Positions 29,981 to 37,977 of a stretch of 64,000 nucleotides of DNA are shown here, one piece after another. This DNA comes from Escherichia phage vB_EcoM_Ozark. How positions within the stretch are numbered: the first letter of the stretch is position 1; each line of letters opens with the position of its first letter. A model generated the notes under the pieces. It saw only the letters and a program-made list of their open reading frames with translations, was not told where the DNA came from and made no database searches. Made by a program: the position numbers and the translations under genes. Location of the stretch: the sequence record NC_054927.1; one strand, 5' to 3'.

Positions 29981-30194
29981 ATTTGACTTCCTCACCAGTA
30001 CATAAATCGTATTCAACTAAACGAATAGGTTCATGAATGCCATATCCATGAACAGAAATTTCTGTAGTAGGATAAATTCCATTAATATCACCCATGTTCC
30101 ATGCTTCGTTAAATTGCTGTTCGCCTGAATTACTAAACCACTCGGCGAAAGCATTTAGCACATCTTCAGAACCTTCAATAATTATCTTTGCCAT
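29973..30194 (-). CDS. Hypothetical small acidic protein
   Basis: 73-aa ORF. Confidence 0.35.
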   Translation of the reverse strand: MAKIIIEGSEDVLNAFAEWFSNSGEQQFNEAWNMGDINGIYPTTEISVHGYGIHEPIRLVEYDLCTGEEVKYD

Positions 30195-30556
30195 TACAAA
30201 CTCTCGGTAAAGGTACGAGCGATAACATCGCGCTGCTGTTCCGGAGTCAGAGAGTTAAAGCGAACTGCATAACCGGATACACGGATGGTCAGCTGCGGAT
30301 ATTTTTCCGGATGCTTAACTGCATCTTCCAGAGTTTCGCGACGCAGAACGTTTACGTTCAGGTGCTGACCACCTTCAATTTTAACTGTAGGCTGTTGCTC
30401 AATTTCAATTTCACGGGCATGCAAACCGTAGAAAATTTCTGGGTCTACAAAAGAGTCCTCTTTAAAGGTTTTAGAGACAATAATTCGTGCTTGAATACCA
30501 TCTTCAAAATAAATAGTGCCTTTGTGTGTGCCTTCAAGAATTTGATATGCTTTCAT
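30194..30556 (-). CDS. Autonomous glycyl-radical cofactor (GrcA/YfiD-like; T4 Y06I-like)
   Basis: 120-aa ORF ending in the glycyl-radical signature [26 protein letters not shown] typical of pyruvate formate-lyase C-termini. Confidence 0.8.
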
Positions 30557-30563
30557 ATAAACC

Positions 30564-30893
30564 TCAATTAGAAAATAAATTTATCCAAGATTGTTCTTTA
30601 ATTAAAAATGGCTCAGAATCATATGCCATTAAACTTTGGGTAATTAATCCTTTAAAAGGTCCATCAATAAATTCCATGGTAAAATATGGAATTTTATTCA
30701 TTAGCCGCGCATTAGGAGCAGTGCACAAAACTCTGCATCCTTTGAATACGCCTTTTTGTAATTTGTATTGCTTGGGATAAAATTCGCTCAAAATGTTGTT
30801 ATTTGCCAAAATTTCAAAATGATTCACCAATTTATTTTTAATAGTTTTTGGCGAAAAATAAAGATATTCGAAAAGCTGAGTGTCTGTCATCAT
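30564..30893 (-). CDS. Hypothetical protein
   Basis: ORF track gives 126 aa from 30944; the ATG at 30893 forms an ATGA overlap with the upstream stop and gives 109 aa ([10 protein letters not shown]...). Confidence 0.35.
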
Positions 30894-31429
30894 TGCATTC
30901 CGATTACGAAAAACTGTGGACGAGTAATACCACCAATGCAACATTTAATATTACAGCAGCAGTGTACAGTGTCAATATGGACACTATAAATCTTATCCAT
31001 ATCAGGAGATTTGACAGGCTCATCAATTATATATAAAATTCGCGAAAGCTTTAAACCTCTGAACTTGCTTCCTTTATTACCGATAAAACTGCGCACAGAA
31101 TCAGTAAATAAACGAAAACGTATATCATCATTAGAATAACGCGAAAATTCCTTTTTAATGTTATTTGCAGAAATTTTAGCGTAAGCTGAAGTATTAGAAA
31201 GAACAATAACTGTTCCGCCATCATACAACCAATTAGCAGCAAAGTTAGTCACAGCAATTGATTTACCGGATTGACGTCCACCGTCTAGTCGAAGTGTGCA
31301 ATACTGTTTAAGTAATTCTTCAAATGGCGGGATATATTCGTTTTTACAAATTTCTTCTACTCTAGCATCAGAATGGTGTGTAAAAGCATTCATCAGGGAT
31401 AGATAAGGACCAGTTAAAAATGTTCTCAT
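30890..31429 (-). CDS. Small P-loop NTPase-like protein
   Basis: 179-aa ORF; Walker A GGRQSGKS and Walker B-like LYIIDEP; C-terminal Cys cluster (HCCCNIKCC). Confidence 0.45.
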   Translation of the reverse strand: MRTFLTGPYLSLMNAFTHHSDARVEEICKNEYIPPFEELLKQYCTLRLDGGRQSGKSIAVTNFAANWLYDGGTVIVLSNTSAYAKISANNIKKEFSRYSNDDIRFRLFTDSVRSFIGNKGSKFRGLKLSRILYIIDEPVKSPDMDKIYSVHIDTVHCCCNIKCCIGGITRPQFFVIGMQ

Positions 31430-31569
31430 TTCTTCTCTCTAAATTTGGGCCATTCCGTGGCGCATGAATTGTCCATTTCTGTATTTACCCATTACCGCAC
31501 TTGGGCTCGACCTTATTACAGGTTGGCGGGAATCCCTCACAGAATCATGAGGTCCAGGTTGTTCCCATA

Positions 31570-32043
31570 TTATTTGAACGATTTAACGTACTGAATAGAA
31601 CCTTTACTATTCACGAAAGCGATTTTACCATTTTTATTATACATGGTAGCAGTACGCTGATAGCCATAAGTTTGCTTACCAGATTGATAACCAACTAATG
31701 CAAAATTATCTTCACCCATTTTATTCTGTTTAGCGCGAATGCGTTCATGACCATGTGCCATAAGAACCTTAGCATCACCAGTTGCAATGGATCGACGAGT
31801 TTTTTCATCTTCAACTGTATTAACAAAGTCGTCAAATGAATCAAATTTAGCATGAGATTTATTATACAGTTTTCCATCTACTGCATAATTATATCCCTGT
31901 ACATCCATCTCAACTTCTGTACCATCATCCAATACAGCAGTGATTTTCTGTCCTTTTTTAAATTTCAAAAGATCAGTAAAAGATTCAGCAATAATTTGAG
32001 AATTAATAGCTGCTTCAGTAATAAATTCTTGATATGTTTTCAT
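31570..32043 (-). CDS. Internal-protein-like packaged protein with capsid-targeting sequence
   Basis: 157-aa ORF beginning MKTYQEFITEA, i.e. the T4 internal-protein capsid-targeting sequence with a protease-type L/I-x-E cleavage motif. Confidence 0.6.
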   Translation of the reverse strand: MKTYQEFITEAAINSQIIAESFTDLLKFKKGQKITAVLDDGTEVEMDVQGYNYAVDGKLYNKSHAKFDSFDDFVNTVEDEKTRRSIATGDAKVLMAHGHERIRAKQNKMGEDNFALVGYQSGKQTYGYQRTATMYNKNGKIAFVNSKGSIQYVKSFK

Positions 32044-32059
32044 GTGTATCCTTTAATTT

Positions 32060-32377
32060 TTATTCTTTAGGGAAGTTTTTAGAATATGCATCATAAAGCT
32101 TATTTCCAATACGGCGGAAAACTCTAGCCGCAAAACGATTTTCTGGGTTTTTAATCATGATTTGCATCATATAAGTACCCGCGTCAGAAAGAGCTTCTTC
32201 ATAGTACCCGTTAATTTCTTTAAGAGTCCTACGTTTACCACCAGGACCATCAACAGTGATTTTCCATTTACCTGTAGAAGTGCGACTTGGCGGCTCAACT
32301 TGTTCAATCCAGATATAACCGCCTTCTACACGTTGTCCTTGGGCAGATTCTGCAATAAATTCTTTAAACGTTTTCAT
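32060..32377 (-). CDS. Internal-protein-like packaged protein with capsid-targeting sequence
   Basis: 105-aa ORF beginning MKTFKEFIAES; early-promoter element immediately upstream. Confidence 0.6.
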   Translation of the reverse strand: MKTFKEFIAESAQGQRVEGGYIWIEQVEPPSRTSTGKWKITVDGPGGKRRTLKEINGYYEEALSDAGTYMMQIMIKNPENRFAARVFRRIGNKLYDAYSKNFPKE

Positions 32378-32411
32378 ATGGTTCCTTTAAATATTTTAAT
32401 TAGTAACTATG

Positions 32412-32446
32412 AATATACTATCACAGTTCTAGGAGAAAGTAAACAA
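32412..32446 (-). promoter_or_regulatory. Early promoter upstream of an internal-protein gene
   Basis: Minus strand GTTTAC-N15-TGA-TAGTAT. Confidence 0.45.
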
Positions 32447-32448
32447 CT

Positions 32449-33417
<969 letters not shown>

Positions 33418-37029: not shown

Positions 37030-37105
37030 TGGTCGAGGCAGTAGGGATCGAACCTACGACCCAGGACTTAGAAGGTCCTTGCTCTTCCTTCTGAGCTATG
37101 CCCCG
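37030..37105 (-). tRNA. tRNA-Arg (anticodon UCU)
   Basis: Hand-folded cloverleaf: acceptor CGGGGCA/TGCCTCG, D-stem GCTC, anticodon loop CTTCTAA, T-loop TTCGATC, CCA encoded. Confidence 0.8.
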
Positions 37106-37109
37106 TAAT

Positions 37110-37185
37110 TGGGGTGACCGATGGGAGTCGAACCCATGACTACGAGAATCACAATCTCGAGTTCTACCAACTGAACTACGGCCAC
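37110..37185 (-). tRNA. tRNA-His (anticodon GUG)
   Basis: Hand-folded: acceptor 7 bp, anticodon stem CGAGA/TCTCG with loop TTGTGAT, T-loop TTCGACT, discriminator C, CCA encoded. Confidence 0.7.
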
Positions 37186-37299
37186 ATTAATACCTACTCC
37201 AATAATCAAGATGTCTTCACACGAAATTAAGAGAAGAGTGATCAGTTCAACCCCTATAATCGCGTCAAGTAGATATTAATGTGACAGTTGTCACAAATT

Positions 37300-37374
37300 T
37301 GGCGGACGTGATAGGATTCGAACCTATAACCAATCGCTTAACAGGCGATCGCTCTGCCATTGAGCTACACATCC
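37300..37374 (-). tRNA. tRNA-Asn (anticodon GUU)
   Basis: Hand-folded: anticodon stem ATCGC/GCGAT, loop CTGTTAA, T-loop TTCGAAT, CCA encoded. Confidence 0.75.
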
Positions 37375-37378
37375 AAAT

Positions 37379-37465
37379 TGGTGGGGAGTGGTGGAGTCGA
37401 ACCACCCGAGTCGCAATGACAATGGATTTACAGTCCACACCGCTACCTCTACGGGATAACTCCCC
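37379..37465 (-). tRNA. tRNA-Tyr (anticodon GUA), long variable arm
   Basis: Hand-folded: exact 7-bp acceptor GGGGAGT/ACTCCCC, anticodon loop CTGTAAA, ~15-nt variable arm, T-loop TTCGACT, CCA encoded. Confidence 0.7.
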
Positions 37466-37478
37466 TTAATTCTTAATT

Positions 37479-37553
37479 TGGTGGCCCTGGGTGGAATTGA
37501 ACCACCATCTGGCGATTATGAGTCGCTTGCTTGAACCTTCCAGCTACAGGGCC
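37479..37553 (-). tRNA. tRNA with anticodon CAU (elongator Met or Ile with modified C34)
   Basis: Hand-folded: exact acceptor GGCCCTG/CAGGGCC, anticodon loop CTCATAA, T-loop TTCAATT, CCA encoded. Confidence 0.7.
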
Positions 37554-37554
37554 T

Positions 37555-37630
37555 TGGTGCTGATTGACGGAATCGAACCGCCGACCTTCTCATTACAAGT
37601 GAGTTGCTCTACCTACTGAGCTAAATCAGC
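37555..37630 (-). tRNA. tRNA-Thr (anticodon UGU)
   Basis: Hand-folded: exact acceptor GCTGATT/AATCAGC, anticodon loop CTTGTAA, T-loop TTCGATT, CCA encoded. Confidence 0.75.
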
Positions 37631-37635
37631 AAAAC

Positions 37636-37725
37636 TGGCGGAGGCGATAGGATTTGAACCTATGAGTCGCCGGAGCGACTGCCGGTTTTCAAGACCGGTG
37701 CATTAAACCACTCTGCCACGCCTCC
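37636..37725 (-). tRNA. tRNA-Ser (anticodon UGA), long variable arm
   Basis: Hand-folded: exact acceptor GGAGGCG/CGCCTCC, anticodon stem CCGGT/ACCGG with loop CTTGAAA, variable-arm hairpin GTCGC/GCGAC, CCA encoded. Confidence 0.8.
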
Positions 37726-37727
37726 AG

Positions 37728-37801
37728 TCTCCATACAAGGATTTGAACCTTGGACCTCCTGATCCCAAATCAGGCGCTCTACCAAACTGAGCTACACGGA
37801 G
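37728..37801 (-). tRNA. tRNA-Pro (anticodon UGG)
   Basis: Hand-folded: anticodon stem CCTGA/TCAGG, loop TTTGGGA, T-loop TTCAAAT; CCA not encoded. Confidence 0.75.
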
Positions 37802-37811
37802 TAAATTAAAT

Positions 37812-37885
<74 letters not shown>

Positions 37886-37890
37886 AAATT

Positions 37891-37977
37891 TGGTGCGAGA
37901 AGTGGGACTCGAACCCACAAGGAAATCATTCCGCAGCATTTTAAGTGCTGTGCCTTTACCAATTTGACCATTCTCGC
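37891..37977 (-). tRNA. tRNA-Leu (anticodon UAA), long variable arm
   Basis: Hand-folded: exact acceptor GCGAGAA/TTCTCGC, anticodon stem CAGCA/TGCTG with loop CTTAAAA, T-loop TTCGAGT, CCA encoded. Confidence 0.8.

Follow-up and report, generated by a model that had tools for sequence, protein, structure and literature searches.

A conserved pseudoknotted RNA motif upstream of vs.8 in T4-like phages is shared with unrelated phage groups

Introduction

In phage T4, the pyrimidine-dimer glycosylase gene denV is flanked by the vs genes and the genes for internal proteins, and the question arises what the same locus holds in a relative that appears to lack denV. A preliminary description of a 64,000-nucleotide (nt) stretch of Escherichia phage vB_EcoM_Ozark (sequence record NC_054927.1; here called the window, to which all coordinates refer) noted a small P-loop protein and a 140-bp non-coding spacer where denV had been expected, and suggested that these could be a replacement or the scar of a deletion. 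The window is from a T4-like phage; over 30400-32100 it shares 99% identity with Escherichia phage vB_EcoM_G50 and 96-98% with many other Tequatrovirus genomes. In the computational analysis reported here, the P-loop protein (the product of vs.8) and the absence of denV prove to be ordinary. The main finding concerns the spacer, which with little doubt represents a functional structured RNA, to judge from sequence comparison. It holds a pseudoknotted phage RNA, widespread and apparently undescribed, which also occurs in T4, under what is probably a mis-annotated coding sequence.

Results and Discussion

Structure of the spacer RNA

The spacer (31430-31569) spans 140 nt between the ATG of vs.8 and the stop codon (31570-31572) of a gene for an internal protein, and contains no conserved long open reading frame (ORF). 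Its G+C content is 47%, compared to 35% for both flanking ORFs and for the window as a whole, in agreement with the preliminary description. A small inverted repeat, cctca/tgagg, is likewise found as described (31548-31552 and 31535-31539); a 5-bp inverted repeat carries no meaning by itself, and this one forms an inner hairpin of the structure given below. That the spacer is structured could not be upheld by folding of the single sequence. By its minimum free energy z-scores (minus strand, +0.80; plus strand, -0.55), the sequence is not stabler than its shuffled versions, and structure cannot be concluded from it alone. Comparative evidence, on the other hand, supports the claim far beyond chance.

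BLAST with positions 31400-31600 matched 1032 phage records. In T4, 130-140 nt of the spacer are found at 96.5% identity between denV and vs.8. The motif is also retained in more distant T4-like genera, e.g. in Klebsiella phage JD18, where it is placed between two internal-protein genes. The elements of the predicted RNA in the window are:

31449-31566, minus strand: whole structured motif in its T4-like form (118 nt), composed of the core (31479-31566) and a T4-like 3´ hairpin
31528-31566, minus strand: P1 domain
31566-31562 with 31532-31528, minus strand: P1, GGGAA paired with UUCCC
31558-31555, minus strand: 5´ strand of the pseudoknot, CCUG, within the internal loop of P1
31552-31548 with 31539-31535, minus strand: P1b, the inner hairpin, CCUCA paired with UGAGG (the inverted repeat)
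31487-31527, minus strand: core three-way junction of P2, P3 and P4
31527-31524 with U31491 and 31489-31487, minus strand: P2, GCCA paired with U and GGU, G31490 being bulged
31523-31510, minus strand: P3, ACCU-GUAAUA-AGGU
between P3 and P4, minus strand: junction CGA
31506-31497, minus strand: P4, GC-CCAAGU-GC
31496-31492, minus strand: invariant junction strand GGUAA
31481-31479, minus strand: 3´ strand of the pseudoknot, CAG, five nt beyond P2, pairing with C-U-G at 31557-31555
31461-31449, minus strand: T4-like 3´ hairpin, GCC-ACGGAAU-GGC, ending 20 nt ahead of the vs.8 ATG

The core thus comprises about 90 nt, or 118 nt when the T4-like 3´ hairpin is included, and displays two GUAA turns, one in the P3 loop (GUAAUA) and one in the invariant GGUAA strand. 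The pseudoknot connects the internal loop of P1 to the tail beyond P2; its register in the window was taken from relatives. The 3´ hairpin is predicted by RNAalifold and invariant in 19 T4-like sequences, with zero covariation.

Two sequence resemblances were noted along the way. The 3´ hairpin (31449-31461), which reads GCC-A(A/C/U)GGAAU-GGC in the T4-like sequences, presents a GGA in its loop and in this respect resembles binding sites of CsrA/RsmA. The P3 loop and 3´ strand (31510-31519 in the window) read GUAACAAGGU in most non-T4 copies and GUAAUAAGGU in T4-type copies. The former equals positions 1497-1506 of 16S rRNA, the 1492R primer site; the identity could be due to chance or reflect mimicry of the decoding-centre linker.

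Covariation in the core and in the P1 domain

Across 61 distinct sequences of the core, 90.1% of cells are paired, compared to 74.2% in column shuffles (reached in none of 500), and the covariation score is 0.415 against 0.114; when partners are slid by 1-3 columns, only 28-41% pair. Aligning 80 distinct sequences to the model gave 90.8% pairing and a score of 0.425, with 28-39% in shifted controls. In this larger set, the P2 pairs 8/46, 9/45 and 10/43 are each 99-100% paired with three to five pair types, and the P4 pair 29/36 is found as CG (58), UA (17), GC (3) and AU (1). P2 and P4 were outside every search pattern, and their covariation therefore constitutes independent evidence. G-U pairs are frequent, e.g. 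GU in 20 sequences at pair 7/47 and UG in five at pair 10/43. These would be A-C mismatches on the opposite strand, which assigns the RNA to the window's minus strand; its constant orientation relative to flanking genes and tRNAs leads to the same assignment.

Misalignment of P1 in a MAFFT alignment of mixed T4-like subtypes limited RNAalifold to P3 and the 3´ hairpin. A subtype-specific alignment with a hand-derived structure was used for 25 T4-like sequences, here referred to as type B, and covers P1, P1a, P1b and the pseudoknot. Pairing is 90.9%, compared to 81.1% in shuffled and 22-41% in slid controls, and the covariation score is 0.247 against 0.071. Every type B sequence is paired at P1 pair 12/59 (GC in 14, CG in 10, AU in one) and at P1a pair 21/57 (AU in 12, CG in 12, GC in one); the three core pairs of the pseudoknot occur as two to four pair types, with pairing at 100%. 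Compensatory substitutions in P1 and P1b are seen in phage Murica (GGGG/CCCC and CACAU/AUGUG) and in locus L019 (GGGAG/CUCCC).

The two strands of the pseudoknot also co-vary across groups, as in GGGUA/UACCC, GGGAG/CUCCC, CUCCGG/CCGGAG, UUCCGG/CCGGAA, ACAAGAAC/GUUCUUGU and GUGAGGG/CCCUUAC. When upstream loops were matched to their own and to foreign tails, the own tail gave the better fit (z = 3.7-4.7; none of 5000 permutations reached this value); the windows in this test were narrowed since wide windows were confounded by the outer stems. As far as comparative data can tell, the fold is shown to be under selection, to lie on the gene strand, and to be common to unrelated groups of phages.

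Evidence against a coding role of the spacer

In the T4 reference record (NC_000866.4; locus L214), the CDS of vs.8 has its ATG within P1b and continues across the motif, giving a protein of 219 aa in which the upstream 120 nt are read as coding. The extension (3294-3413 of L214) corresponds to 31430-31539 of the window. Following this annotation, the spacer would encode the 40 N-terminal residues of Vs.8; alternatively, it might encode a small upstream ORF of 16 or 37 codons, and the window does have a 16-codon ORF (MDNSCATEWPKFREKK), the stop of which overlaps the vs.8 ATG. The reading frame is poorly kept, however. In 16 of 19 distinct T4-like variants it meets a stop 0-21 codons upstream of the conserved start, at positions and in frames that vary through indels; in the window it is closed by a TAG at 31439-31441, as it is closed in most relatives. 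The 18 aligned Vs.8 homologues share the start M(R/K)TFLT, except that one has an N-terminal extension of 11 residues; some database entries outside this alignment have about 15 additional N-terminal residues. Neither small ORF is a conserved feature of the type B and JD18 sequences, and the core is retained in phages in which the motif is found among tRNA genes. A protein-coding role for the spacer is hard to credit on these grounds. The N-terminal extension as a conserved feature appears refuted, and the vs.8 start in the T4 RefSeq record is probably a mis-annotation, which our result would correct. Independently of this, the T4 reference carries a 9-nt duplication, CTTATAGAG, just 5´ of the true vs.8 start, which T4 strain 147 is without.

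Distribution and genomic context

A covariance model of the core finds a single match in the window, at 31480-31533 on the minus strand (68.6 bits, E = 2e-21), and no copy within the tRNA region of the window. The model separates true copies, at 33.6-74.5 bits, from chance matches to the search patterns, at 23 bits or less. Carriers are T4-like, rV5-like, Kagunavirus-like and KpCHEMY26-like phages as well as metagenomic contigs. Despite having no relationship to T4, the rV5-like Vequintavirus phages keep a 43-nt core at 93-95% identity, in a 345-nt gap adjoining a tRNA cluster. Pattern scans of viral contigs and metagenomes revealed the motif in phages of 17-360 kb, many of them uncultured; the named carriers include the Kagunavirus-like 44-kb siphovirus EcoPhCCP1 and the 70-kb Klebsiella phage KpCHEMY26.

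Origins outside phages were considered and rejected. The spacer has no BLAST match in 5,426 E. coli genomes, which argues against derivation from the host. Scanning the species genomes of bacteria and archaea (185,579) with the patterns gave 28 matches, none of which scores above 23 bits, compared to at least 33.6 bits for true copies. They are thus attributed to chance, and no credible bacterial copy was found in these genomes.

Outside the T4-like phages, the motif is associated with tRNA genes. A tRNA lies within 1 kb of 43 of the 79 non-T4 copies, always on the same strand (43/43), and within 300 nt of 19 of them. T4-like loci have none within 1 kb (0/58), and the tRNA cluster of the window is 5.5 kb away. 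In three loci (L079, L083 and L084) the motif follows immediately after a tRNA and ends, as read by eye, at a hairpin with a U-run; a simple terminator scan missed those of L084 and L079 owing to its limits on loop and stem size. Homologues of vs.8 are missing from the non-T4 carriers, and across lineages no protein family is repeatedly found next to the motif.

In phages of 46-70 kb, the motif is enclosed in a long outer stem of about 15-20 bp (GUGCUCUUUCCGUUGUGA ... UCACAACACACAACAGGUAAGAGCAU), and the sequence of the 5´ arm recurs downstream, before the next unit. The outer stem with its repeated arm looks like a repeated double-stranded processing cassette, perhaps a substrate for RNase III. 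The loci in question are L036, L038, L040, L045, L047, L070, L143 and L165, all from enterobacterial phages of that size. The motif is present twice in some phages, with the copies in tandem and about 85-115 nt apart at four loci, and the second copy shows compensatory differences, e.g. P3 as GCCU/AGGC in L044. The two-copy loci are:

L044, 5089-5253
L046, 9018-9183
L066, 827-965
L121, 2105-2243
L187, 156-207 and 2457-2509

The contexts in non-T4 phages point to an autonomous RNA gene that would be expressed together with tRNAs. A different RNA was encountered in one metagenomic contig, where abiF RNA (Rfam RF03085, 45 bits, above the gathering score) is found at 1417-1448 on the minus strand of L137, some 1.4 kb from the motif.

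Possible functions

On balance, we consider it somewhat more likely than not that the motif is a stable small RNA, cut from early or tRNA transcripts, with a conserved component of infected cells as its target in trans. The spacer RNA would be transcribed as part of such transcripts and trimmed out of them; in some phages the long outer stem surrounds it, or it runs up to a terminator. It would then bind its partner in trans, most plausibly one linked to tRNA or translation. In T4-like phages, the RNA may have become fixed ahead of vs.8 and be co-transcribed with this gene.

Several observations weigh against this account. Action in trans is inferred from the context of the motif. The invariance of P3 and GGUAA arises in part by construction, as the search patterns fixed both, even if the BLAST matches that first revealed these elements were pattern-free. 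Only 3 bp make up the pseudoknot of the window and of T4 (CUG/CAG), compared to 4 bp (CCUG/CAGG) in L184, a close relative. To our knowledge, classic work on stable RNA in T4 reports just the tRNAs and RNAs C and D, which makes an abundant stable species in this phage doubtful. A review states that trans-acting RNA has not been characterised in T4 (PMC3014915). Finally, in the 55 T4-like loci the motif is almost always directly 5´ of vs.8, an arrangement that fits a leader acting in cis as well.

Such a leader would be a riboswitch-like or protein-binding 5´ untranslated region that governs how the vs.8 mRNA is translated, or its stability, in T4-like phages. Nearly all T4-like loci have the motif 62-71 nt 5´ of the vs.8 start, including those in which Vs.8 is down to 34-43% identity, and the conserved 3´ hairpin that ends 20 nt before the start codon is specific to the T4-like form. 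Pseudoknotted three-way junctions of this size are, moreover, typical of ligand-binding aptamers. Against this, the motif is followed by an internal-protein gene rather than vs.8 in JD18-type phages, and by tRNAs, a promoter or a terminator, with no gene in common, in the rV5-like, Kagunavirus-like, 46-70-kb and metagenomic phages. A riboswitch is expected to have the same gene or pathway downstream in all lineages, but vs.8 follows the motif in T4-like phages only, and no structure that would sequester the ribosome-binding site was found. We regard regulation of vs.8 in cis as an unlikely role for this RNA.

The order of the helices (5´ strand of P1, 5´ strand of the pseudoknot, hairpin, 3´ strand of P1, branched domain, 3´ strand of the pseudoknot) is that of a nested double pseudoknot. 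This is reminiscent of the HDV-like (hepatitis delta virus-like) ribozymes, and one may ask whether the motif is a self-cleaving ribozyme that processes tRNA-containing or early transcripts in the manner of the HDV-like theta ribozymes, which have been reported from gut phages of Bacteroidota and Bacillota (PMC10879173). Theta ribozymes share with the motif not only this topology but also an association with phage tRNA genes on the same strand (PMC10879173). Their catalytic C at the first position of J4/2 (PMC10879173) is, however, not found in the motif. The nucleotide following P2 is A in T4 and the window and U in type B and L057, and L084 lacks the junction altogether. Furthermore, the invariant nucleotides are in the counterpart of P4, a branch that HDV-like ribozymes can do without, the hairpin corresponding to P3 is long and irregular, and no ribozyme model in Rfam matches. 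Self-cleavage is thus improbable, more so than a cis-acting leader.

A further possibility, which we put forward tentatively and hold to be somewhat less probable than its converse, is that the motif represents an undescribed class of phage RNA with an activity of its own, either tight binding as a decoy or sponge or catalysis, that has spread horizontally among unrelated virulent phages. Its target could be a universally conserved component of the tRNA or translation apparatus, or host defence. In T4, such an RNA would have been overlooked because it was annotated as the N-terminus of vs.8.

The core hardly changes between T4 and the rV5-like, Kagunavirus-like and uncultured phages and travels with tRNA genes, and this breadth, together with the linkage to tRNAs, points to a function of general use to phages. 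RNA biology has T4 as its reference phage, and the presence of the motif there makes the RNA directly testable.

Relation to known RNAs

None of the 4227 covariance models of Rfam 15 matches 31430-31569 at E <= 10. The motif is likewise unmatched in six loci, judged by the gathering threshold, and in 11 diverse loci with a cutoff of E <= 1. ARAGORN finds no tRNA or transfer-messenger RNA in the spacer, nor is the motif matched by the tRNA model of Rfam. A full-text literature search for the literal core sequences returned no paper, and searches on vs.8 and denV only unrelated ones. On small RNAs of T4, we found just the review that states that none has been characterised and a preprint on differential RNA-seq of T4 that is silent on this locus. 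The motif is thus probably undescribed, but may be listed, without a name, among the 8,495 candidate viral RNAs of a published catalogue (PMC10690425).

The nearest known kind is that of GOLLD and ROOL, which are large and structured, are encoded by phages and prophages, and are often found near tRNA islands (bioRxiv 10.1101/2024.12.08.627333). Like these, the motif is phage-encoded, pseudoknotted, associated with tRNA clusters, and without a known protein partner or function. It is 5-8 times smaller, at about 90-135 nt compared to roughly 580-800 nt or more, is not matched by the GOLLD and ROOL covariance models, and occurs also in strictly virulent enterobacterial phages such as T4. The proximity to tRNA genes is seen in 43 of 79 non-T4 copies but in none of the 58 T4-like loci. 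With respect to HDV-like and theta ribozymes, the likeness is confined to the nested double-pseudoknot topology and the tRNA-adjacent site on the same strand; the motif differs in having no J4/2 catalytic C, no model match, and its conservation in the P4-equivalent branch. RNAs C and D of T4 are also small non-coding RNAs of T-even phages, linked to tRNAs by context and of unknown role (PMC3014915). They are located inside the T4 tRNA cluster, whereas the motif is about 5.5 kb away, in front of vs.8.

The locus and the absence of denV

All genes at this locus are on the minus strand. In the direction of transcription the order is e, the Ip10-like gene, the Ip4-like gene (DUF7412), the spacer, vs.8, vs.7 and the GrcA-like vs.6. 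The features are:

32449-32943, minus strand: lysozyme gene e
32378-32448: junction between the second internal-protein gene and e (71 nt), the site of denV in phage JK38
32060-32377, minus strand: gene for an Ip10-like internal protein
31570-32043, minus strand: gene for an Ip4-like internal virion protein, DUF7412 (Pfam PF24183, E = 6e-96; phrog_3155; annotation of relatives)
30890-31429, minus strand: vs.8, the 179-aa P-loop ORF, with its ATG at 31429
30564-30893, minus strand: vs.7 homologue (G50 annotation; phrog_2049)

The T4 order is vs.7, vs.8, denV, ipII, ipIII, e, which bears out the preliminary description in that denV is found between the vs genes and the internal-protein genes. 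In the window, this position is taken up by the Ip4-like gene. That denV is missing was also correct: tblastn with DenV of T4 and JK38 gave a best E of 0.3 across the 64-kb window, and in what remains of the G50 genome (1-50000 and 94000-167728) no match reached E <= 1. Joining the window to these remaining parts of G50 covers a whole G50-like genome. As a positive control, DenV was found in 1112 other phage records.

The position of denV varies among T-even phages. It is between the spacer and ipII in T4, and between Ip10 and e in JK38. Sequences on either side of denV in JK38 correspond to 32300-32392 and 32402-32485 of the window, marking a clean absence at 32392/32402. At this site, about 9 nt in the window replace roughly 420 nt of JK38 (L002, 4988-5404). 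From these comparisons, denV behaves as an accessory, movable cassette of the variable internal-protein region, and the phage lineage of the window is simply one without denV. The gene is accordingly both dispensable and mobile among T-even phages.

The suggestion that the spacer is a scar or replacement left where denV was lost has in its favour that denV is missing from both the window and G50. The alignment with T4 and relatives speaks decisively against it. T4 has denV side by side with the full spacer, and also has vs.8, so the spacer is no scar, and the clean indel relative to JK38 is about 900 nt away. The deletion-scar reading is refuted, and we give it practically no weight.

The homology among the window, T4 and JK38 stops precisely at the 5´ edge of the motif, and the cassettes upstream differ, with denV in T4 and Ip genes in the window. 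This could indicate that the motif serves as a DNA recombination anchor, a boundary for swapping internal-protein and denV cassettes similar to the PeSLs, the promoter-early stem-loop cassettes of T4-type phages, which flank variable regions (PMC4122927). PeSLs are AT-rich and consist of a terminator-like stem-loop followed by a sigma-70-type early promoter (PMC4122927). The motif resembles them in being conserved, intergenic and placed where a variable (hyperplastic) region has its edge, but is GC-richer, 2-3 times longer, and found also in non-T4 phages. No promoter- or terminator-like site was detected on the minus strand within 31430-31569, and a spacer lacking both the sigma-70-like promoter and the terminator does not conform to the definition of a PeSL. 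Helix-preserving compensatory changes and frequent G-U pairs are unexpected for a recombination site, and the motif is present in unrelated phages without an Ip locus. A recombination anchor is thus largely refuted by the covariation and is a most improbable explanation of the element. What the locus represents is the ordinary right-hand edge of the T-even 'vs' gene block, with the variable cassette region, comprising the internal-protein genes and in some phages denV, starting upstream of the RNA element.

The P-loop protein and neighbouring genes

The 179-aa ORF with a Walker A motif (GGRQSGKS), a Walker B motif (LYIIDEP) and a Cys-rich tail was confirmed at 30890-31429. Its proposed role as a stand-in for denV did not survive comparison with T4, as the protein is 98% identical over 179 aa to the T4 vs.8 reading frame (NP_049732), and vs.8 is the direct neighbour of denV in T4. 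The T4 orthologue also shares the neighbours vs.7 and vs.6 and the upstream 130-140 nt with the window. Vs.8 matches phrog_1488 (E = 5.4e-79, residues 3-179), with a weak match to terminase ATPases besides, and a Pfam scan gave no domain above threshold. In database searches, the homologues, where named, come from T4-like phages, apart from one labelled E. coli. Among 18 homologues, the Walker A and B motifs are kept, with D49-K56, I134, I135, E137, P138 and two arginines invariant and D136 nearly so; the Cys-rich tail is not conserved.

An AlphaFold2 model of Vs.8 (predicted local distance difference test score 82) has a domain of alternating strands and helices. Its similarity to domains of the additional strand, catalytic glutamate (ASCE) class of ATPases (helicase, KaiC, terminase) is weak and generic, with template modelling scores of 0.37-0.54, and sequence and fold searches of the PDB gave generic P-loop matches only. 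On the basis of this model, Vs.8 is best described as a stand-alone RecA-like/ASCE P-loop ATPase domain.

Downstream, the stop codon of vs.8 and the start codon of vs.7 overlap as ATGA (30890-30893), the customary T4 layout for translational coupling. The next gene, vs.6 (30194-30556, minus strand), encodes a 120-aa protein with a GrcA-like glycyl-radical domain (Pfam PF01228, E = 2.5e-18), a phage-encoded spare part for pyruvate formate-lyase. Farther away, ARAGORN predicts 10 tRNAs at 37030-37977 on the minus strand (Arg, His, Asn, Tyr, Met, Thr, Ser, Pro, Gly and Leu), a set that differs from that of T4, which carries eight.

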